From the NCBI GenBank assembly GCA_963817915.1, contig CAWFQL010000017.1:352001-416000 (forward strand): a stretch of DNA of 64,000 nucleotides. The letters are read 5' to 3'. A program made the translations under genes and the position numbers. Below the pieces are notes generated by a model. It was not told the DNA's origin, did no database searches, and saw only the letters and a program-made list of their open reading frames with translations. The DNA comes from an uncultured candidate division Zixibacteria bacterium. Its GTDB lineage: Bacteria > Zixibacteria > MSB-5A5 > UBA10806. Positions 53,651 through 64,000 of the stretch are shown piece by piece (the first letter of the stretch is position 1; each line of letters opens with the position of its first letter).

Positions 53651-54313
53651 ATGCCTGGAAAAATCAAATCCAAAATGATCTGGGATCGTGAAGGACTGGC
53701 GAATTTGTATCATAAGCAGGGAATGTCATTGACGGACATCGCGCAGAAGTATGGTTGTTCTCGTCAATATGTCCAGCTTGTGTTTAAAGAGCTCAATATC
53801 GAACGACGAACACGACAGGAAGCGTTGAAACAAAAACCGAGAAATCGGAAGAGCAAATATGATTTCAAGCCCTTTCATGATTCGTTTATAGCCAAAAATT
53901 ATACCACAATGACTGACCACGAAATTGCTGATAAATTGAAAAAACCGCCAAGCAGTGTCACCTATAGAAGGTTGCTTGTATTAGGGAAAAAGAAAGTGAA
54001 TCGGAGAAATTTCACTTCGGAAGAAAACGATTTTATTTTGGATAATTATAAAAATCTCACAGATTTGTCTATAGCTGAAAAATTGAATAGATCGCTGATT
54101 TCGGTTACCCATCATCGAAATCGTATTTTAGGCAGGCCTAAAAGAAATATTCGCTCATATTCGGATACGGAAAATGTATTTATCAAACAGAATTATAGAA
54201 AGCTGACAGATGGCCAACTGGCCGAAGCCTTAAATCGTTCTAAAGCTTCAATTGCTATCCATAGAAATGAAGTGCTTGGACTTGGCAAAATGAAAAGAAG
54301 TCAGCAAAAATAA
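53651..54313 (+). CDS. Putative DNA-binding protein: N-terminal HTH plus three tandem 49-aa Myb/HTH-like repeats
   Basis: SD ggagg; 'MSLTDIAQKYGCSRQYV'; repeats begin at F72, F121 and Y170 with consensus (F/Y)....(N/D).FI..NY..(L/M)TD..(I/L)A..L.(R/K)...S(V/I)...R..(V/I)LG. Confidence 0.75.
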   Translation: MPGKIKSKMIWDREGLANLYHKQGMSLTDIAQKYGCSRQYVQLVFKELNIERRTRQEALKQKPRNRKSKYDFKPFHDSFIAKNYTTMTDHEIADKLKKPPSSVTYRRLLVLGKKKVNRRNFTSEENDFILDNYKNLTDLSIAEKLNRSLISVTHHRNRILGRPKRNIRSYSDTENVFIKQNYRKLTDGQLAEALNRSKASIAIHRNEVLGLGKMKRSQQK

Positions 54314-54510: not shown

Positions 54511-54539
54511 CGTGTATGTTTATTTATCAGGGATTAATT

Positions 54540-55538
54540 ATGGCGGCTAATCAAGATGTAATATCTAAAATAAAGAGATTCTATCTTTTTTACGGGCCGA
54601 ATAACTATAGGATTTCTGCAAGAGTCTCATCGCTTATAGCTACTGTGCTTCAGCCCGGAGCCGACGTATTTGACCTCGATAGATTCGATGGCAAAGGCTG
54701 CGATATCAACTTATTGATCAACAGTATTTCAACTCCCCCCGTTATGAGCCCGCTGCGCATCATTTTATTGAGTAATGCGGAAAAGCTTACGTCTTCCAAC
54801 CAGGCTGCACTTGAAAAATTTCTCTCGAAAATCCCCGAATATTCGGTATTAGTAATGACTGCGGTAAAACCCGACGCCCGTTCAGCATTTTTTAAAAATC
54901 TTTTGGCGAAAAAGAAAGTCAATTCATTTGCGTTCGATGATTATGAGCCCAATGAAATGCTGGGGCTTGTAATTGATTTCGCCAAAAAGCGCAATAAATC
55001 GATATCCCCTGAAATAACTTCATCCGTTGTAGATATTTTCGGGAATGATTTATTCAGGTTGGAAAATGAAATTGATAAACTGTCTCTGTTCGTTGGTGAT
55101 AAAGAGACCATTGAAAAGAAAGACCTCGCCTTTGGTTATGGATTTTCCAAGGTCGAAACCATAGATGATTTGCCCGAATTGCTACTAAATAACAAACCTA
55201 AAGCCGCACTAGAGCTTACGCGACGAGCCATTGCCGGCGGCATTAGTGAGATACAGATTTTATTTATGATAAGAGGTCTTCTGATGGCCTTAAATGCGGC
55301 CAAAATGACTTCCGATGTTAGAACTTTGATGTCAACGGCACGAGTCTCACCCAATGTGGCATTTATGGCCCAAAGAAAAGCACGTATTGTTGGCGAACAA
55401 TATGTCCAACAAGGACTTATGCTTGTATTCAGGGCGGAATATGCGCTTAAATCGGCTCGATTCCCGGCAGAAGCGATTATTGACCAGCTGATTGTATCTA
55501 TGTTTTCTTTGCCAACGGGGAATATTAACTCCGTTTAA
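54540..55538 (+). CDS. holA: DNA polymerase III delta subunit
   Basis: 'FYLFYG.NNY', 'DLDRFDG', 'TPPVMSPLRIIL', 'GNDLFRLENEIDKL.LF', C-terminal 'AEYALKS'. Confidence 0.8.
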   Translation: MAANQDVISKIKRFYLFYGPNNYRISARVSSLIATVLQPGADVFDLDRFDGKGCDINLLINSISTPPVMSPLRIILLSNAEKLTSSNQAALEKFLSKIPEYSVLVMTAVKPDARSAFFKNLLAKKKVNSFAFDDYEPNEMLGLVIDFAKKRNKSISPEITSSVVDIFGNDLFRLENEIDKLSLFVGDKETIEKKDLAFGYGFSKVETIDDLPELLLNNKPKAALELTRRAIAGGISEIQILFMIRGLLMALNAAKMTSDVRTLMSTARVSPNVAFMAQRKARIVGEQYVQQGLMLVFRAEYALKSARFPAEAIIDQLIVSMFSLPTGNINSV

Positions 55539-55547
55539 TGGTATAAT
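55539..55547 (+). promoter_or_regulatory. Extended -10 promoter upstream of the ECF sigma gene
   Basis: TG-g-TATAAT at 55539-55547, followed by SD ggaggt and ATG 55575. Confidence 0.5.
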
Positions 55548-55574
55548 AGATAGAACGATTGGAGGTAATAGTTC

Positions 55575-56153
55575 ATGCAGGAGCTCAATGATCACGAATT
55601 AATTGATAGAGCCCTGAACGGCGATAAGGCAGCTTTTGGGATTTTGGTAGATAGATACAAAAAGAAAATCTACTATTTGGCCTATCGCATGACTCGTGAT
55701 CATGATTGCGCCGATGAATTAGCGCAGGAAAGTTTCGTAAAAGCATATCAGGCCCTGGGTACATTTAAGAGGGGCTATAGCTTTTACACCTGGGTTTACA
55801 GAATTTGCATCAATATTACGATTAATTTTATCAAAAGAGAGAAATTTAGCGTTCCCATGGATTCACTCAATGAAACCGAAATCCGTGAAAATACGGCAAT
55901 CGATAACAATCAGCTCGAAAGGCTTATTTCATCTGAGCAGGCTTCGTTAGTTAGAAAGACACTTGATACCCTGCCGCCGGAACAAAAGGCCGCTTTCCTT
56001 CTTAAAACATATGATGATTTGTCGTATGAACAGATTGCGGAAACTATGGGGACATCGATTGGCACGGTTATGTCGAGACTTTTCAGGGCTCGATTCAGGA
56101 TTAAGCAGGCTCTGAAAGATATCGAATCTAAAAGGGATGTGTGGGATGAGTAA
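55575..56153 (+). CDS. ECF RNA polymerase sigma factor
   Basis: 'GDKAAFGILVDRY', 'ADELAQESFVKAY', 'FYTWVYRI..N', 'LSYEQIAETMG.SIGTVMSRLFRAR'. Confidence 0.95.
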   Translation: MQELNDHELIDRALNGDKAAFGILVDRYKKKIYYLAYRMTRDHDCADELAQESFVKAYQALGTFKRGYSFYTWVYRICINITINFIKREKFSVPMDSLNETEIRENTAIDNNQLERLISSEQASLVRKTLDTLPPEQKAAFLLKTYDDLSYEQIAETMGTSIGTVMSRLFRARFRIKQALKDIESKRDVWDE

Positions 56154-57158
56154 ATGTAATAATACAAAGCTGATGCAGATATATCTTGATGGCTGGATGG
56201 GCGAAAGTGAAATCAAGAAATTTGAAGATCATCTGAAGGATTGCCCCGAATGTCAGATGGAGTTGGTGGATCTGGAAGAGGTTACGAGAGCGACTTTGGA
56301 GATCGTAGATCAGGCTCCGGAACGGGAATATTGGGATAATTTTGTCAATCGCGTCAACAATCGCATTGCCGCCCGCGACGTTAGTATGGAGATTTCGTCA
56401 TCCAGGAAAAGTAAATCATTTTCAGTAAAATATTCTTTATACTCGGTTGCTGTTATGGCATTTGCTGCCTCATTACTGATAATTTTCGATATAGGCATCA
56501 ATAAAAAACCGAATCCAAATCAAGCCGCAGACTCTAATCTTTATGCCCCAATTTCGGGAAATCTGCCGCTTATATTTTCCGGCGCGGAGCAGGCATTGCC
56601 TTCAAGCAATTCTAATATAAGCCAAACCCAAGAAGCGTCAATGTACCGCCAACTGAAAATTCCCGTTCGATTATGTCAAAGGCCGCGGAATCGTCGGATT
56701 CATCAGACGAGACAAGCACTCAGGGAGTTAATCCCCAGATAGTTGGCTATCAAAGAAATTTGCCGGGTGGCGTGGGAATAGTAAAGGACTTGAATACTTA
56801 TATCAGAACAAGATCAATAATGCCAAGCGCCAGTATAATGTTGAGCGATATTTCGGTCTCGGATATGCAAACCAGATTGAATTCGGACGACAGGCTTGAT
56901 TCATCATTAAAGTTAAGATTGTCGGTTATTGCCGATAGAATGCTCTCTGGTATCAATAATGTTTCGCGATTGTCCGGCAATGCAGGAAGCTCTTTGCTGA
57001 ATCAGGATTATGCGTATGCCGATCTCAATGGCGGGCGGGCTAATGTCAATGATGCCATTAACACACGTTGGGGTTATTTGAGAATGCCTATTGACACTAC
57101 GAAATCTGCCGACGCCGGAAAATACTTGATCGAACTCGAATTAATGCAAAATAAATAG
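56146..57158 (+). CDS. ZAS (zf-HC2) transmembrane anti-sigma factor, apparently split by a -1 frameshift at about 56620-56645
   Basis: 'C...YLDG...FEDHLKDCPEC' (HxxxCxxC), one TM helix, then a Ser/Asn-rich tail. The frame of ORF 56673-57158 is open back to about 56617 and continues the same low-complexity sequence. Confidence 0.75.
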
Positions 57159-57177
57159 TTGATTTGACTCAAACAGC

Positions 57178-57206
57178 TTGATTATCAAAATATAGTCTCA
57201 TATATT
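57178..57206 (+). promoter_or_regulatory. Sigma70-type promoter of the cap/pgs operon
   Basis: TTGATT (57178-57183), 17 nt, TATATT (57201-57206). Confidence 0.5.
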
Positions 57207-57243
57207 AAGGAACTATCGTCGAAGCGACGATGGTTATTGAAAT

Positions 57244-58416
57244 ATGTGGGTAATTCTTACACTGATTTTAGGGCTAATTTTTTTAGGAATTTGGGAATTC
57301 CGATACCACCAGTATCATCTTGCTCAATTACCTATAAGAGTCCATGTTAATGGCACCAGGGGTAAGTCGTCTGTTACAAGGCTTATTGCAGGCGGGCTTC
57401 GTGGGGGCGGATACAAAGTATTTGCAAAAACGACAGGTACCAAGCCTCGAATGATCTATGATGATGGCAGCGAAGAACCCGTTCACAGGGTTGGCAAGCC
57501 CAATGTTATTGAGCAGAAAAAAATCGTTTCCAGAGCCACTCATTTGGGAGTGCAATATTTTGTTACGGAATGCATGGGTGTTCAGCCTCACTTGCAGGAT
57601 ATTCTCGAAAGGCAATTTATTAAAGCGCAAGTCGGCGTTATTACCAACGCGCGTGCCGATCATCTCGACATGATGGGTCCAACGGTTGAGGATGTCGCCG
57701 AATCACTCGCCAATACAGTGCCACGCAACGGCATTTTATTTACCGCGGAAAAACAATATTTCAATATATTGAAAGAAAGAGCGGAAAAGAGAAATTCCGG
57801 CATTCATCTGGCCGAAGGCCACGTGATTACTGATGATGAGATGCGCGGTTTTTCTTATCTTGAGCATAAAGACAATGTTGCCCTGGCACTAAAAGTCTGC
57901 GAGCATCTCGGGGTGGATAGAAAATCTGCGATTAAGGGGATGCAGGACGCCAATCCCGATCCGGGCGTATTGAGGCGTTACCAGATAATTTCGCAGGGAA
58001 AATCAATAGAGTTCGTCAATGCTTTTGCCGCCAATGATCCCGATAGTTTTAAGGTAATCTGGGAAATGCTAAAAATTCATCATGAGCCCAATAAGACATT
58101 GATTGTACTTGTAAATTCACGACAGGACAGGATTCAGCGGGCCGAACAATTGGGCGAATTTATAGCGTCTAATCTAAGCGCTGATTTTTATGTCATTACC
58201 GGCCAGAATACTCATCCGCTGGTTGCCAAGGCCATTGCCTGCGGATTACCTCATAATAAGATCGAGGACATGGGCGGGCGAACAATTGAATCTATCTTTA
58301 ATAGTATTGTCAACCTATCCGCGGAAAAAGCGTTGGTTTTTGGAATCGGAAATATAGTCGGTTTCGGAGAACAGCTAGTGCAATTCTTTACTGAAAGGGG
58401 TAGCGAGATTGTCTGA
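57244..58416 (+). CDS. pgsB: Poly-gamma-glutamate synthase CapB/PgsB (Mur-ligase fold)
   Basis: N-terminal TM, 'IRVHVNGTRGKSSVTRLI', 'AKTTGT', 'NVIEQ', 'ECMGVQP.LQ', 'ITNARADHLD.MGPT', 'NAFAANDP', 'GIGNI.G.G'. Confidence 0.93.
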   Translation: MWVILTLILGLIFLGIWEFRYHQYHLAQLPIRVHVNGTRGKSSVTRLIAGGLRGGGYKVFAKTTGTKPRMIYDDGSEEPVHRVGKPNVIEQKKIVSRATHLGVQYFVTECMGVQPHLQDILERQFIKAQVGVITNARADHLDMMGPTVEDVAESLANTVPRNGILFTAEKQYFNILKERAEKRNSGIHLAEGHVITDDEMRGFSYLEHKDNVALALKVCEHLGVDRKSAIKGMQDANPDPGVLRRYQIISQGKSIEFVNAFAANDPDSFKVIWEMLKIHHEPNKTLIVLVNSRQDRIQRAEQLGEFIASNLSADFYVITGQNTHPLVAKAIACGLPHNKIEDMGGRTIESIFNSIVNLSAEKALVFGIGNIVGFGEQLVQFFTERGSEIV

Positions 58417-58876
58417 AGTTGTAGTTATGATGCAATCTGTGGGGCTCGGACTGGTTGTCAGCCTCCTGTGTTCTGAGACTCTCGGACTTGCGGCAGGCGG
58501 AATGGTTGTGCCTGGCTATATGGCTTTAATGATACATGACCCTTTTAAGATCGCGGGTACTATCCTCGTAAGCCTCTTGACCTTTTTCTTAGTTAGAATT
58601 TTTTCGAATTATATTTTTATTTATGGTCGTAGAAGGACAGTGCTTGTCATATTGATCGGCTTTGGTCTGGGATGGCTGGCTCGTGAATATTTCGTATTTA
58701 CTCTGCCATCAGGCAAGATTCTGGAATTTCAGGCTATAGGATTTATTATTCCCGGCCTGATCGCCAATTGGATGGAGCGCCAGGGCGTCATTCAGACATT
58801 GTCAACAATGATTATCGCCGCGGTAGTTGTCAGGCTGCTGCTCATGATCTTTACGGGCGGGAAGGTGATAGTATGA
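58409..58876 (+). CDS. pgsC: Poly-gamma-glutamate biosynthesis membrane protein CapC/PgsC
   Basis: 'E.LGL.AGGMVVPGYMAL', 'IYGRRR', 'IGFIIPGLIANW..RQG...T'. Confidence 0.93.
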   Translation: MSEVVVMMQSVGLGLVVSLLCSETLGLAAGGMVVPGYMALMIHDPFKIAGTILVSLLTFFLVRIFSNYIFIYGRRRTVLVILIGFGLGWLAREYFVFTLPSGKILEFQAIGFIIPGLIANWMERQGVIQTLSTMIIAAVVVRLLLMIFTGGKVIV

Positions 58877-60042
58877 GACCGCGCCCGAATAATCCGTCGA
58901 TAAGGCTTTTGGTATTATTGGCTCTCTTTTCGCTCGTGATTTTTTATTTGGCCGAAGGCACTCTGCAAAAAAAGCCGGCGCCGCATTGGGAACTAAAAAA
59001 CAGAGCAGCGATTTTAGATCAACGAGCGCAGGACGTAATCAGAGAAGAGGTCAAAAAGCTCGGAATCGCCATTGATTATGAGAATGATCCTAATGGAACC
59101 GGCCTTATAGGCGAACAAAATACACTAATTACTACAGATGTTGGCGAACTCCGCAGCAAGCTGGCCGCGACAAATCCCAATTTTGCGGCAGTTTTTGTGC
59201 AGATGCTTAAGGATGCCAATGTTAAACGAGGCGACAAAATTGCAGTCTGTATGTCGGGCTCATTTCCCGGCGCGAATATTGCCTTGTTCAGCGCCTGCCA
59301 GGTGATGGGGATTGAACCAGTCGTTATTACTTCGCTTGGATCATCTACCTGGGGTGCGAATAGTCCCGCTCTGACCTGGATTGATATGGAAAGGCTATTA
59401 TATAATGAAAAGATATTTTCATTCCATTCCGTGGCCGCGTCGTTCGGCGGCGGAAATGATAACGGGCGCGGGCTTTCCGTAAAAGGACGAATGCTTCTAC
59501 ATGAATCAATCAAACGGGATAACATGCCTCTGATTTTCAGCGGCAATCTCGATAGTCTTTTCCAATCCGGTGGAACACTCAGGCAAAATATCGATAAACG
59601 TATGGAGATATTCGATCAGTATAAAAAGGGAATAGAGTATGCCGCTTATGTTAATATAGGAGGCGGTCTGGCATCCCTGGGTTCGTCCCAAAATGGCAGG
59701 CTGATTCCGTCGGGCGTTAATTTCGATCTTTTCAATAAAAATTTCCCTGTTCGAGGCATTATCAATATGATGGCCGAACGGAAAATCCCGGTTATTCATG
59801 TTCTAAGACTGACCGAAATCGCTCACCAGTACGGTTTGTCTCGCGATATTGTTCCAGCGCCGATTGTTGGCGAAGACAAAATATTTTTCAAAGATGAATA
59901 TTCCATAGTTCTGACAACCATCTATGCTTTTGTCTTGATAGCTTTTGTTGTGATCGCAATAAGATTCGATGTTAAATACTATATTAAAAAACAAACCAGA
60001 GTGTTTTTCCCCCCGCGGAAAGAAGAAGATCCGGAGATGTAA
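58873..60042 (+). CDS. pgsW: Poly-gamma-glutamate system protein (PgsW-type)
   Basis: ATGA overlap with capC; N- and C-terminal TM helices; 'DPNGTGLIG', 'ITT..G.L.SK..ATNPNFAA', 'SGSFPGAN', 'SLGSSTWGAN', 'YVNIGG', 'IPVIH'. Confidence 0.8.
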   Translation: MRPRPNNPSIRLLVLLALFSLVIFYLAEGTLQKKPAPHWELKNRAAILDQRAQDVIREEVKKLGIAIDYENDPNGTGLIGEQNTLITTDVGELRSKLAATNPNFAAVFVQMLKDANVKRGDKIAVCMSGSFPGANIALFSACQVMGIEPVVITSLGSSTWGANSPALTWIDMERLLYNEKIFSFHSVAASFGGGNDNGRGLSVKGRMLLHESIKRDNMPLIFSGNLDSLFQSGGTLRQNIDKRMEIFDQYKKGIEYAAYVNIGGGLASLGSSQNGRLIPSGVNFDLFNKNFPVRGIINMMAERKIPVIHVLRLTEIAHQYGLSRDIVPAPIVGEDKIFFKDEYSIVLTTIYAFVLIAFVVIAIRFDVKYYIKKQTRVFFPPRKEEDPEM

Positions 60043-60043
60043 T

Positions 60044-60955
60044 ATGAAGCGATTTGTGTTGATGAATATTATTTTCCTGTTTTTGGCTGCAAGCCTATCT
60101 TTTGGCGCGCCTAAAAAGACTGTAAAGTATCACGCGTTTGCGCCTCGAGGTGTAGGAAAGGCCGTATTCTTGAAAGCGGGTGCCAAGAGCTATGGGTATT
60201 TCGAGGTTGTCAAGGGTAAGACCATTGATTTCGAATTAATGGGACCTACCAAGATCAAAATTACAAGCAGAGCCGAATTACGTCCCAATTCCAAAAATTC
60301 CGAATATCAGATGCAAATTTGGGAAGGTGATAGTCTTAGGGTAGGGCGTAAAGCTAAAACTGTGAAATCGGATGTGATAATCGAAGGGCAAAAACTTGAA
60401 ATTGGGCTGGGCCGTTCAGTTGAATTAAGTGTCCCCAAAGGAAAGCATGTTTATCGTCTATGGTTTACCTCTGATAATACTGATAAGTACTATGTCCGTT
60501 TTTATCAGGAAGTGAAGACGAAAAAATCATCCAGCATGTTATCTTACAGGCCGCTTGAGTTTAAGAAAAAAGTTACCTTGCCGGTAAATAAAAAATCCAC
60601 CACATATTATTTGGTCGATACAACAGGCGGAGTTTCGGTGACAGTTGTCGGGCCCACCGATCTTATCATATATTGCCGGGTGAATTTCGATCAGAATATG
60701 AAAGGCAATAGCAAATTTACTCTCGAAGTCCTCGAATCCGGAAAAACAGTTACCCAGTTCTCGGAAATCGGCGCACTGGCTCCAAAGCTTTCCTATAAGG
60801 AAATGACAGAAATTATTCCGTCTGACCTTCATAAATTCACATTCAATGTGCCATCTGGAAAGCATATTTATACATTTAGGGAAATCAATTCATCGGCTCC
60901 CAGCCTGGCCGTTAGGTTCAAAATATCGAAAAACGGTATTGGGAAAAAATTATGA
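60044..60955 (+). CDS. Secreted Lys-rich protein made of two homologous beta-rich domains, function unknown
   Basis: Start ATG 60044, 1 nt after the pgsW stop; signal peptide MKRFVLMNIIFLFLAASLSFG; internal duplication with GPT, VP.GKH.Y and VRF each occurring twice. Confidence 0.75.
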   Translation: MKRFVLMNIIFLFLAASLSFGAPKKTVKYHAFAPRGVGKAVFLKAGAKSYGYFEVVKGKTIDFELMGPTKIKITSRAELRPNSKNSEYQMQIWEGDSLRVGRKAKTVKSDVIIEGQKLEIGLGRSVELSVPKGKHVYRLWFTSDNTDKYYVRFYQEVKTKKSSSMLSYRPLEFKKKVTLPVNKKSTTYYLVDTTGGVSVTVVGPTDLIIYCRVNFDQNMKGNSKFTLEVLESGKTVTQFSEIGALAPKLSYKEMTEIIPSDLHKFTFNVPSGKHIYTFREINSSAPSLAVRFKISKNGIGKKL

Positions 60956-60956
60956 T

Positions 60957-62030
60957 TTGGAATTATTCGTTGAAAAAAATCGGCTTGTATGTGTTGTCGC
61001 CTTTTTGATGGTTGGTATATTAATTTCTCCGGCAAACGCTCAGAAGAAAAAGAAGAGCTCGGCGAAAGCCTCAACGACGAAATTATTTTCACTGAATACT
61101 GATATCGGATTAGCTTACGACGATAATGTTATCAATTATTCCGAAGCCGATCTGGGGCTTATTGGTGATTCAACAAAAGCCGGCAAATTTGCCATCAAGT
61201 CAAAAAATGACTGGATAACTACTATTAAAATTCAGCCTCAGATCAAGAGCAAGCTTTTATTTGGCCGTACCGCCTGGGTTGATGCTTCCTTCGAATATTT
61301 TTTCTATTTTCGAAATGATGTCAGACGCTATTCGAAGCTTTCAATTAGCGGCCGCCAGTATGTTATTCCAGGCGGCTATGTTGACCTGACTTATGCGTAT
61401 GTGCCAAATTACTATTATCGCAATTACCTGAAAAACTCGATTTGGATGCAGGCAAAATTCAAGAAGCATTATATAAAGCTCGAAACAGGTTATCAGGTTA
61501 CGAAAGAACTCAAGGCTGATTTGGCTTATATTTTCCAAAATAGAATATTCAACAGCGAATTTACCGAGCGAAATACCAAATCCAACTTAGTAACTGCCGG
61601 CATTGATTATTTATTCACCAAGCAATTTAAGGCGTCAATAATCTACGATTTCGAAAGCGCAATCGCGAATGGAGCCAACAATCCGGATCCGAATGTTATA
61701 GATGTCTCTTATGACGCCTGGGATATATCATTGGGATTGAGACATTACAGCCCGCTATTTGGCCATACCAATCCCGAGGTTTACGGCGTTTTCCAATATC
61801 GTAAAATAAAATTTCAATCGATAAAAGTCCGAGATGAATTTCGATTCGGACGCAATGACAATAATTATCAATTTCGATTGGGCGCTTCCGCTCAACTATT
61901 TTATGGTGTCCGAACCGGTTTGGAATACAAAGCTCAGAAAAAGAGAGCCGACATGTTTTTTTCGTCGCGCGAACCTGAAATCAATTATAATTCCAATACA
62001 ATCTCGATCGATTTCAGCCGAACTTTCTAA
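60957..62030 (+). CDS. Outer-membrane beta-barrel protein
   Basis: Signal peptide ending 'SPANA'; alternating hydrophobic/aromatic strands; 'IGLAYDDNV'; C-terminal 'ISIDFSRTF'. Start is TTG 60957, or ATG 60952 if the A-run at 60973-60979 lacks a base. Confidence 0.75.
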   Translation: MELFVEKNRLVCVVAFLMVGILISPANAQKKKKSSAKASTTKLFSLNTDIGLAYDDNVINYSEADLGLIGDSTKAGKFAIKSKNDWITTIKIQPQIKSKLLFGRTAWVDASFEYFFYFRNDVRRYSKLSISGRQYVIPGGYVDLTYAYVPNYYYRNYLKNSIWMQAKFKKHYIKLETGYQVTKELKADLAYIFQNRIFNSEFTERNTKSNLVTAGIDYLFTKQFKASIIYDFESAIANGANNPDPNVIDVSYDAWDISLGLRHYSPLFGHTNPEVYGVFQYRKIKFQSIKVRDEFRFGRNDNNYQFRLGASAQLFYGVRTGLEYKAQKKRADMFFSSREPEINYNSNTISIDFSRTF

Positions 62031-62037
62031 TTGCAGC

Positions 62038-62066
62038 TTGACCTTATCCTAATTCGCCTATATATT
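62038..62066 (+). promoter_or_regulatory. Sigma70-type promoter of pcm
   Basis: TTGACC (62038-62043), 17 nt, TATATT (62061-62066). Confidence 0.6.
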
Positions 62067-62070
62067 TTTC

Positions 62071-62787
62071 TTGGAGGGAATTACCCGTTTTATGATTCCA
62101 TTTCTGATAATGTTTACCATGTTTTCCGAACCACTTGAATCGGGCAATTTTGAATTGCTCAGACTGAATATGGTGGCAAATCAATTAAAAAACCGCGGTA
62201 TCATTAATATTCCGGTATTGAACGCCATGTCGAAAGTGCCCAGACATCTCTTTGTGCCAAAAAAGGAGATAGACCAGGCCTACGATGACTGCCCTTTACC
62301 TATCGGATTTGATCAGACAATCAGCCAGCCTTATATAGTTGCCCTTATGACCGAAATGCTCGATCCGGAATCGGGACAGAAAATTCTCGAAATTGGCACT
62401 GGATCGGGATATCAAGCGGCAATACTGGCAGAGATAGTCGAATCAGTTTATTCAATTGAGATTATCTGTCCGCTTCTGGAGGTCGCTGATTCCACATTGA
62501 AATCATTAGGTTATTCGAATATTTATACTCGTTGCGGCGATGGATACGATGGCTGGTCTGAACATGCTCCTTTTGACGGCATCATAGTAACCGCCGCTCC
62601 TGAAAAAGTACCTCAACCTTTGCTCGATCAATTGAAAGAAGGCGGCAGATTGATCGTGCCTGTCGGTGATAGATTCCAATATCTCGAAATATATACTAAG
62701 AAGAACGGCAAAATATACAGGGAACGTGACATCGCTGTGCGATTCGTTCCCATGACCGGGAAGGCCGAAGAAGAGAAGGAAAAATGA
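62071..62787 (+). CDS. pcm: Protein-L-isoaspartate O-methyltransferase
   Basis: 'VPRHLFVP', 'AYDD.PLPIG.DQTISQPYIVA.M', 'LEIGTGSGYQAA', 'GDG..GW...APFD.I.VTAA', 'VRFVPM'. The start may instead be ATG 62092. Confidence 0.95.
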   Translation: MEGITRFMIPFLIMFTMFSEPLESGNFELLRLNMVANQLKNRGIINIPVLNAMSKVPRHLFVPKKEIDQAYDDCPLPIGFDQTISQPYIVALMTEMLDPESGQKILEIGTGSGYQAAILAEIVESVYSIEIICPLLEVADSTLKSLGYSNIYTRCGDGYDGWSEHAPFDGIIVTAAPEKVPQPLLDQLKEGGRLIVPVGDRFQYLEIYTKKNGKIYRERDIAVRFVPMTGKAEEEKEK

Positions 62788-63821
62788 GAAATCTAATTTA
62801 CGGGCTGATTGTACTATCGCTCGTTGCTTTAGGCTGTATTAATGAAGAAGTTGAATTTAACGGCAAGACTACGATCTTCGAAGATGGCAAAATATCAAGA
62901 CAGGGGCAAATTGCCATCATGCTTTCGGGCGAAAGAACAACCGCAAATGATTCCTTGACCGCGCTCGAATTTTTCAATGCCAACTTTATTAGTCCCGACA
63001 GCGCCGCTTATTCATATAGTCAGTCAATGAGTGATAGCACACTTCTGATCAATTGGAATGCGGATTTTAAGCCGAATTCAAGAATTATTCAGGATTACTC
63101 GCATGTTGGTACAAATGGTTCCAAGGCTGTTAATTCGATATCGCTGATTCCCAGCGATAAATGGTTTTTTAAAGATTACTCATATGAGGAAGCATATTCA
63201 GATCCTATCGATACCATTAAAGTATTCTCTCTTATTGATAGCGGTTTTACATCTGCGACCAAAGCGTTAAAGGCAGAACAAGCAATCAAGACGATCGATG
63301 ATTCTTCTAACGTAAGCAGAATATTGAACCACGCCCAGATGTCGGCTGGTATTAATCTATACAGGTTGTTTTTGCAGAAACCGGATTCTGCTGAATATTT
63401 GCTTCATTTTCTTGAAGTGGATTTGCATTCGCTTGCCGACAGCCTGGCCGACCTCTCGGGCAGCCGGTCGAATATTGGATTAATAGATAGCTTGTTGCTC
63501 TATTATTATGGGGCTTCAGCCGATGGCGTTTGGGACAAGATATTCGCCAACACCACCTGGCTTTTCGGTAGCTACGGTCTTGATGAAGGTGCGAAGAATA
63601 GATTTGCCATAGAACTTATATTTCCCGGCATCCTATTAAAATCAAATGCTGATGAAGTTAAAGGCAATTTATGCCACTGGCAATTTGGCAGTCAATCATT
63701 TCTTGGTAAAAAGAAACCTCTTGAAGCGTCTTTTCGAATTTGGTCTATCCCCAAGACGATTTTGGGTCTCATGATATTATTGATGGCGGTATATTTGGCG
63801 TTCAAGCCCGGCAAAAAGTGA
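62784..63821 (+). CDS. Hypothetical lipoprotein with C-terminal TM anchor
   Basis: Lipobox 'VALGC'; 'FPG....SNAD..GN...W' (LppM/DUF3153-like pattern); C-terminal hydrophobic helix followed by KPGKK. Confidence 0.65.
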   Translation: MRNLIYGLIVLSLVALGCINEEVEFNGKTTIFEDGKISRQGQIAIMLSGERTTANDSLTALEFFNANFISPDSAAYSYSQSMSDSTLLINWNADFKPNSRIIQDYSHVGTNGSKAVNSISLIPSDKWFFKDYSYEEAYSDPIDTIKVFSLIDSGFTSATKALKAEQAIKTIDDSSNVSRILNHAQMSAGINLYRLFLQKPDSAEYLLHFLEVDLHSLADSLADLSGSRSNIGLIDSLLLYYYGASADGVWDKIFANTTWLFGSYGLDEGAKNRFAIELIFPGILLKSNADEVKGNLCHWQFGSQSFLGKKKPLEASFRIWSIPKTILGLMILLMAVYLAFKPGKK

Positions 63822-63857
63822 TATTTAAAATAAGATAATGGTCAATTATCGAAATAA

Positions 63858-63883
63858 TGTAACCAATAGCTCCACTTTTCGTA
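63858..63883 (+). promoter_or_regulatory. ECF-sigma-type promoter upstream of the PspC gene
   Basis: TGTAAC (63858-63863), 16 nt, CGTA (63880-63883). Confidence 0.6.
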
Positions 63884-63915
63884 GTATACAGTGATGATAA
63901 AAGCCGGGAGGAAAA

Positions 63916-64000
63916 ATGGCAAAAAAAATGTACTTATCAACAACGGATAAAAAAATAGGCGGAGTCTGCGGCGGCCTGGCAGAATATTTCGATATTGATT
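63916..64000 (+). CDS. PspC-domain protein, truncated by the window end (absent from the ORF track)
   Basis: SD ggagg then [28 protein letters not shown], matching the PspC signature '[14 protein letters not shown]'. Confidence 0.88.

Follow-up and report, generated by a model that had tools for sequence, protein, structure and literature searches.

We describe here a 303-aa basic secreted protein encoded at positions 60044-60955 of a 64,000-nt stretch of contig CAWFQL010000017.1, from an uncultured Zixibacteria bacterium (this whole stretch is called the window below). Its gene stands in a five-gene cassette that begins with pgsB and pgsC, which encode the subunits of poly-gamma-glutamate (gamma-PGA) synthase, and ends with the gene for a predicted outer-membrane beta-barrel. 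The protein consists of two tandem copies of one jelly-roll domain, and we refer to it as the twin-domain protein. On balance we favor the reading that it handles the polymer in the periplasm, as part of a route that exports gamma-PGA across two membranes, although its location, its binding to the polymer and the identity of that polymer are deduced from predicted structure, charge and gene context. The finding would be one of new accessory export components in a polymer-synthase operon, and components of this kind are already known.

The gene and its cassette

The genes of the cassette, and the parts of the twin-domain protein, are as follows.

57244-58416, + strand: pgsB, ligase subunit of poly-gamma-glutamate synthase (TIGR04012, 469.3 bits against a cut-off of 222.7; Mur_ligase_M)
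58409-58876, + strand: pgsC, membrane subunit (TIGR04011, 131.2 bits against a cut-off of 96.45; PF14102, 4.8e-36)
58873-60042, + strand: TIGR04332 'poly-gamma-glutamate system protein', 389 aa (317.2 bits against a cut-off of 100)
60044-60955, + strand, stop codon included: the twin-domain protein, 303 aa, secreted and basic, with two tandem jelly-roll domains (open reading frame (ORF) and translation)
60044-60106, + strand: its signal peptide, about residues 1-21 (MKR, a hydrophobic core, SFG and then A; read by eye from the sequence)
60128-60514, + strand: its domain 1, residues 29-157, a jelly-roll beta-sandwich with conserved Y52, G67-P68, R76, G133, H135 and R152 (AlphaFold2 (AF2), VIA-align, hhalign, conservation)
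60536-60931, + strand: its domain 2, residues 165-296, a copy of domain 1 with conserved Y188, G203-P204, R212, P270, G272, H274 and R291 (AF2, VIA-align, hhalign, conservation)
60957-62030, + strand: predicted 14-strand outer-membrane beta-barrel, 357 aa (AF2 and Foldseek)

The genes either overlap (pgsB and pgsC by 8 nt, pgsC and the TIGR04332 gene by 4 nt) or stand 1 nt apart: the ATG of the twin-domain gene lies 1 nt past the stop codon of the TIGR04332 gene and is preceded, at a distance of 8 nt, by a GGAG, and the barrel gene begins with a putative TTG (our own reading) 1 nt past the stop of the twin-domain gene. The cassette is translationally coupled and the twin-domain protein is a fixed component of it. 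A promoter and terminator scan of positions 55000-64000 found sites no more numerous than in shuffled sequence.

The TIGR04332 protein has hydrophobic helices at its N- and C-termini, flanking a domain of about 310 aa that, by the positive-inside rule, would be periplasmic; this domain is neutral in charge. In the barrel protein the signal peptide ends in ANA, the mature N-terminus is polybasic (QKKKKSSAK) and the last residue is Phe. Its AF2 model (predicted local distance difference test score (pLDDT) 86.9, predicted template modelling score (pTM) 0.82) has 14 strands, and Foldseek matches it to OmpG (2x9k, E 4.6e-11, template modelling (TM) scores 0.57/0.70) as well as to CymA and PgaA (4y25, E 6.6e-9). 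The polybasic mature N-terminus is found in 24 of 31 barrel homologues and is absent from four loci of sister family f2 and from locus L042. The genome encodes BamA (483 bits, above cut-off), and an outer membrane is therefore to be expected. In this genome, which is 93.9% complete, neither a gamma-glutamyltranspeptidase (GGT)/CapD homologue nor a PgsA/CapA protein (PF09587, PGA_cap) above cut-off was found, the best PF09587 match, on contig C12, reaching 21.4 against 27 bits. A three-chain complex prediction (TIGR04332 residues 36-345, barrel residues 29-357, twin-domain residues 24-303), run without controls, scored 0.01 against a mark of 0.32, a value that counts neither for nor against a complex.

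Two copies of one jelly-roll domain

An earlier, sequence-only reading of this DNA had described the protein as Lys-rich, basic and secreted, built from two copies of one novel domain and folded as tandem beta-sandwich modules, and our analysis agrees with it on each of these points. The signal peptide, as read by eye, would be cleaved after SFG and has no lipobox cysteine; in the AF2 model it appears as a helix at residues 3-16 followed by low pLDDT at residues 18-23. The mature part is 13.2% Lys, with an isoelectric point (pI) of 9.9 and a net charge of +24. In net positive charge per 100 aa the protein ranks second among 51 non-overlapping window ORFs of at least 150 aa, behind a DNA-binding helix-turn-helix (HTH) protein, and the product of the downstream barrel gene ranks third.

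The internal duplication is evident at several levels. Residues 23-165 and 166-303 are 24% identical across 129 residues (BLASTP E 4e-7), and their Smith-Waterman score of 78 stands against 29.4 +/- 5.1 for 1000 shuffles, none of which reached it (z 9.6). When an alignment of 137 full-length family members was split at the linker and the N-halves were compared with the C-halves by hhalign, the two profiles matched with 99.95% probability (E 2.6e-38, 129 columns). The motif pairs quoted in the sequence-only reading are present and collinear: ELMGPTKIKITSR / TVVGPTDLIIYCR, SVPKGKHVYRL / NVPSGKHIYTF and YYVRF / LAVRF. Its first pair, FAP..V.L..KSYGYF / YRP..V.L..KSTTYY, is likewise present and collinear, but the dots abbreviate the spacing, which is P-x6-V-x-L-x4-KS in both halves. 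Five features are near-invariant and common to both halves, namely Y52/Y188, Gly-Pro 67-68/203-204, R76/R212, H135/H274, which sits in the VPxGxHxY strand, and R152/R291, which is in the final Arg-Phe. Two distant and very Lys-rich relatives, P0067 (446 aa) and P0069 (429 aa), which match no Pfam or NCBIfam family, apparently carry three copies of the motif set, as judged by eye.

The AF2 model, built from a 19-sequence alignment, has a mean pLDDT of 88 and is all-beta except for the signal-peptide helix, with no C-terminal hydrophobic helix. It contains two all-beta domains (residues 29-156 and 165-295), the strands of the first exceeding pLDDT 90, and its pTM of 0.51 leaves the mutual orientation of the two undefined. 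The top Foldseek matches in the PDB are tandem CBM22 (4xup) and tandem CBM51 (2ygm, 2ygl) carbohydrate-binding modules (CBMs), at E values of about 1e-6. VIA-align, which is independent of Foldseek, matched each half singly (residues 25-159 and 164-295) to CBM51, CBM36, CBM35, CBM27, CBM22, CBM6 and similar jelly-rolls, with Z scores of 8.2-10.2 that we read as indicating a fold class. These single-domain superpositions have a root-mean-square deviation (rmsd) of about 3 Å (2.8-4.1 Å) across 103-121 residues, at 4-13% sequence identity. Both halves are thus two-sheet structures that superpose on solved CBMs and are, in the predicted models, CBM-like jelly-roll sandwiches, a statement of fold class and not of homology or function. 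Polysaccharide lyase family 7 (PL7), whose members combine a jelly-roll with Arg, His and Tyr, was considered as a likeness and dropped: the domains are only about 130 aa long and the 50 best structural matches include no catalytic domain of a lyase.

By sequence, the protein matches nothing above cut-off in Pfam or NCBIfam, the sole sub-threshold Pfam matches being Arrestin_N (15.3 bits) and LPD28 (13.3 bits), and no Pfam CBM family reaches its gathering score. A profile of 106 family members found no PDB chain at E<0.1, and the TIGR04332 profile found nothing below E 0.1 in the same search. The domain can therefore be called novel in that it belongs to no known sequence family, as had been proposed.

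Distribution and gene order

A word-indexed search returned 21 close relatives of the twin-domain protein at 41-60% identity, one of them from a Zixibacteria metagenome-assembled genome (MAG), and an exhaustive search of representatives returned 305 clusters at E<=1e-3, nearly all of about 300 aa. A typical member has this length and begins with a signal peptide, and its two homologous halves both carry GP(T), R, VPxGxHxY and RF motifs; the twin-domain protein has all of these. The ESM Atlas holds unnamed clusters only, with Fidelibacterota as the commonest taxon on very few records.

Within the phylum of the window, 28 of 201 genomes contain the family and 35 contain PgsB. No family genome lacks PgsB, which scores 409-469 bits in 27 of the 28 and in the remaining one is a fragment that lies on a different contig. 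In 26 of the 28 the family gene lies on the same contig and strand as pgsB, about 1.6 kb downstream of it (the other two have the genes on different contigs). In the 7 genomes that have PgsB without the family, the PgsB is of a distinct type that scores lower (231-262 bits). One distant member, P0100 (25% identity), led to a second phylum, and there to the chromosome-level MAG OY769902.1, which has the same five genes in the same order. Among 79 genomes of that phylum the family is present in 75 and PgsB in 75; 74 have both and 3 neither, and of the other two, a small one has just the family and the second just a PgsB fragment. The two genes share a contig and strand in 69 of the 74 and lie on different contigs in 5. 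The same-contig and same-strand counts in both phyla come from a hand comparison of two search tables. It should be noted that the genomes are kin and not independent, so that the counts overstate the statistical weight of the pattern, but the pattern still holds in two phyla. With the cassette near-universal in the second, largely uncultured phylum, a coat of polyglutamate may well be a basic trait of its organisms.

Gene order at the fetched loci adds to this picture. In all 17 fetched loci of the window's phylum that carry the family gene, pgsB, pgsC and the TIGR04332 gene precede it, TIGR04332 directly, and a profile search places the barrel directly 3' of it in 16 of the 17, as well as in L042 and L043 of the second phylum. 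Only one of these 19 loci, L038, has no barrel, and there the contig ends inside the family gene. At another, L035 (3186-4401, - strand), the barrel profile matches two ORFs that overlap and differ in frame (E 7e-29 and 1e-27), which from the sequence is a broken gene or a sequencing error. The link to capBC (pgsB/pgsC) that the sequence-only reading had assumed is therefore very tight, resting on co-occurrence in two phyla and on gene order.

Three loci with the low-scoring PgsB were also fetched, and these have pgsB, pgsC and TIGR04332 followed by a secreted protein of 1000-1760 aa, with neither family gene nor barrel. The large secreted proteins lie at L039:6722-12001, L040:2221-5466 (- strand) and L041:6798-9923, and the two that were scanned show a weak match to the G8 domain. 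Across both operon subtypes, gene order therefore ties TIGR04332 to PgsBC and the twin-domain protein to the barrel.

Fusions and charge across the family

Ten proteins from the 150 best listed representatives, the five longest included, were scanned, and in three of the ten a TIGR04332 domain and, after it, the twin-domain family turned out to form one polypeptide. These are P0150 (693 aa), P0164 (683 aa) and P0139 (476 aa, N-terminally cut; a cluster mate has 671 aa), with TIGR04332 scores of 297, 317 and 76 bits, respectively. In the fused chains a short basic loop comes after the C-terminal helix of TIGR04332, and a second hydrophobic segment then stands where the signal peptide would be, an arrangement that would keep both large parts on the same side of the membrane, presumably the periplasmic one. 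A gene-calling artefact is unlikely, because three separate clusters show the fusion. A search among longer close relatives of the twin-domain protein found no fused one, which is weak evidence.

Basic charge, which had been seen in the single protein, extends to the family as a whole: 126 of 137 members carry a net positive charge, the median charge being +15 and the median pI 9.8, and 115 have a pI above 9. The N-terminal domain is the more basic of the two, with a median charge of +10 versus +5. An N-terminal hydrophobic run is present in 124 of the 137, and a crude lipobox-like pattern in 11.

A proposed role in polymer export

Based on these data we can outline a model. PgsB and PgsC, together with the membrane-anchored TIGR04332 protein as a stand-in for PgsA, would make gamma-PGA at the inner membrane and push the growing polymer out into the periplasm. 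There the twin-domain protein, placed on or close to the periplasmic part of TIGR04332, would bind the emerging polyanion through its basic surface and the conserved Arg/His/Arg set in each domain, and the chain would then be handed to the basic outer-membrane barrel and released at the cell surface. Binding of gamma-PGA is suggested by charge, by the predicted fold class and by context; the periplasmic location, the hand-over to the barrel and gamma-PGA as the product are suggested by the genes. More tentatively, and as a possibility in which we have less confidence than in the general role, the twin-domain protein and the barrel may be the periplasmic and outer-membrane steps of a dedicated gamma-PGA export machine, a counterpart of the cellulose, alginate and poly-N-acetylglucosamine (PNAG) machines made from unrelated parts, in which case the twin-domain protein could be the first known module specific for gamma-linked polyglutamate, with one Arg/His/Arg site per domain.

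Several observations weigh against this proposal. The jelly-roll fold is generic, and best Z scores of 7-8 are typical of models without a clear match; with that much common background, the scores of 8-10 found here are taken as evidence of fold class and not of function. Seven genomes of the same phylum have PgsBC and TIGR04332 without the twin-domain family or the barrel, so that not every such system needs the module. In 3 genomes of the second phylum, a second copy of the family gene lies off the pgsB contig (G215:C130:28701-29411, G210:C606:258-992 and G234:C95:47754-48524). The charge is not universal, as 11 of the 137 members are not net positive and 9 have a pI below 7, and the pore of the barrel is not strikingly positive, with 19 basic versus 14 acidic lumen-facing residues in its strands by a crude and very rough count. 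Finally, that the polymer is gamma-PGA in both phyla is deduced from homology to TIGR04012 and TIGR04011.

Other roles can be envisaged for a protein with these properties. The strict adjacency of the twin-domain and barrel genes would suit a partner of the barrel that has nothing to do with polymer binding, such as a plug, gate or assembly factor, and, since the product of the PgsBC-like enzymes in both phyla is predicted from genes, the whole module might even serve a product other than gamma-PGA. We regard this as unlikely, as the fusions join the twin-domain protein to TIGR04332 and not to the barrel, PgsB and PgsC are equivalogs that score well above their cut-offs, and the conserved positive charge of the twin-domain protein and the barrel fits an anionic cargo. 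The same charge could instead mean that the protein holds the finished capsule on the cell non-covalently, at the surface or at the periplasmic face of the outer membrane, a job that CapD does by covalent anchoring in Bacillus anthracis. The genome yielded no GGT/CapD homologue, and two tandem lectin-like modules, or three as in P0067 and P0069, suit multivalent binding; however, beyond its signal peptide the protein shows no recognisable signal for anchoring or for export to the surface, and the fusions tether it to the inner-membrane TIGR04332 protein and not to the outer membrane, which makes capsule retention rather improbable.

The near-invariant Tyr, Arg, His and Arg of each half (Y52, R76, H135 and R152; Y188, R212, H274 and R291) might be catalytic, given that some jelly-roll proteins are enzymes, and the protein could then trim the polymer, set its length or modify it in the periplasm. 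Such a role seems to us quite improbable: domains of about 130 aa resemble binding modules in size, binding modules and not catalytic domains dominate the 50 best structural matches, no enzyme family was matched in Pfam, NCBIfam or the PDB sequence search, and a motif kept in both copies fits repeated binding sites better than two active sites. The sequence-only reading had gone another way, with the protein taking the place of CapA/CapE or of a tetratricopeptide repeat (TPR) scaffold, and in that detail it is probably wrong. A place inside the synthase in lieu of PgsA/CapA or PgsE/CapE would agree with the lack of a PgsA/CapA above cut-off in the genome and with the position of the gene downstream of pgsBC, where the available excerpts of PMC5751247 place pgsA and pgsE in Bacillus. 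Against it, the gene found at the pgsA position is that for TIGR04332, both in all 20 loci fetched from the window's phylum, the three without the twin-domain gene among them, and in L042 and L043; the seven PgsBC-TIGR04332 genomes likewise do without it; and the twin-domain protein is soluble and all-beta, travels with the barrel and has no PGA_cap match at E<=0.1. We therefore consider replacement of a synthase subunit very improbable. TIGR04332 is the likelier stand-in for PgsA, because it accompanies PgsBC in both operon subtypes, and polymer handling in the periplasm remains the role that we favor for the twin-domain protein.

The synthesis of gamma-PGA is well studied in Bacillus, but we did not find its route across an outer membrane to the cell surface described. 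Full-text searches of literature outside the subscription journals, followed as far as abstracts, returned nothing on a periplasmic or outer-membrane component of gamma-PGA export or on polyglutamate genes of Zixibacteria, and the available excerpts of PMC3815933 and PMC5751247 do not mention an outer-membrane export component. The available part of the Chem Rev review PMC13721041 does not treat polyglutamate. The compact and conserved five-gene cassette is a directly testable candidate for such a route, and the twin-domain protein, as a candidate gamma-PGA-binding module, could serve in detection or purification of the polymer.

Neighbouring genes

Directly 5' of pgsB in the window lie holA and a gene pair for an extracytoplasmic function (ECF) sigma factor and its anti-sigma factor (54516-55538 and 55575-56153, + strand), and the same arrangement is found in 8 of 17 related loci (L022 and L024-L030); given this distribution, the ECF sigma factor is a possible regulator of the cassette, though only in the two families that are closest. 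The anti-sigma gene that follows the sigma factor (56137-57158, + strand) is apparently split, with an N-terminal part in one frame (about 56131-56575) and a C-terminal part in another (about 56895-57156), while relatives have a single ORF of about 330-340 aa, which suggests a frameshift or an assembly error. Between glmS and holA (53651-54313, + strand) is the gene for a very basic 220-aa protein (pI 10.3) with an N-terminal HTH and about three internal repeats of the form '..TD.EIA.KL.R....V..R'; beyond HTH_23 it has only sub-threshold HTH matches. On the 3' side of the barrel gene (62071-63821 region, + strand) is pcm, for a protein-L-isoaspartate O-methyltransferase-like protein, a neighbor that the window shares with 8 related loci. 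After pcm the window has a 345-aa ORF with a lipobox-like N-terminus (LVALGC), which belongs to no Pfam or NCBIfam family and is matched in 4 related loci.

Comparison with known systems

The closest known systems by synthase are those of Bacillus (PgsBCA(E)/CapBCADE), which share with the cassette the PgsB and PgsC equivalogs and, according to excerpts of PMC5751247 and PMC3815933, the arrangement of accessory genes after them in one operon. The difference lies in the accessory genes themselves, as TIGR04332, the twin-domain protein and the outer-membrane barrel take the place of PgsA/CapA and CapD/GGT. In the Bacillus model PgsB and PgsC polymerise, and PgsA and PgsE are implicated in transport (PMC5751247, in excerpt); PgsA/CapA has homology with Ser/Thr phosphatases, and Fusobacterium nucleatum is cited as the first Gram-negative gamma-PGA producer (both PMC3815933, in excerpt). 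As an identity for the twin-domain protein PgsA/CapA was rejected, since there is no PF09587 match at E<=0.1 and the model is all-beta, versus a membrane-anchored alpha/beta phosphoesterase-like domain. PgsE/CapE, a very small membrane peptide, was set aside as well, the twin-domain protein having 303 aa and two predicted folded soluble domains. When compared with CBM51, CBM36, CBM35, CBM22 and CBM6, the two halves differ in being attached to no enzyme and in having Arg, His and Tyr as their conserved residues.

In architecture the cassette resembles the alginate (AlgX/AlgK/AlgE) and PNAG (PgaB/PgaA) systems, in which a charged polymer is exported via a periplasmic binding protein and a dedicated outer-membrane barrel, and in which channel and cargo are charge-complementary. 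The resemblance does not extend to sequence, and the cassette has no TPR scaffold, esterase or deacetylase domain. Its barrel, with 14 predicted strands, is nearest to OmpG and CymA, whereas the Alg and Pga barrels are larger. Systems of the Alg, Bcs and Pga type also have a TPR scaffold and a c-di-GMP receptor; a Pfam scan of ten operon proteins, with no dedicated search made, gave no TPR or PilZ family match at E<=0.1. A TPR scaffold (AlgK, or the N-terminal parts of BcsC and PgaA) was also rejected as an identity for the twin-domain protein itself, which matches no TPR family at E<=0.1 and has an all-beta model. What these systems and the cassette have in common is that an inner-membrane synthase and a dedicated outer-membrane barrel are encoded together.

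A close analogue of the twin-domain protein may be BcsB, the periplasmic partner of an inner-membrane synthase, which has two jelly-roll domains of carbohydrate-binding type and guides the nascent chain towards an outer-membrane barrel. BcsB (PDB 5eiy, chain B) matches the twin-domain protein with Z 8.7 across 213 aligned residues, but the two-domain superposition has an rmsd of 20.5 Å and the twin-domain protein has no Pfam match above cut-off. BcsB also contains two flavodoxin-like domains and a C-terminal membrane anchor, whereas the twin-domain protein consists of two beta domains only, and its cargo is a glucan, whereas that of the cassette would be a polyanionic polypeptide. Although the twin-domain protein is no member of either family, its role in gamma-PGA export would be comparable to that of the carbohydrate-binding domains of BcsB in cellulose export, or of the CBM of AlgX in alginate export.

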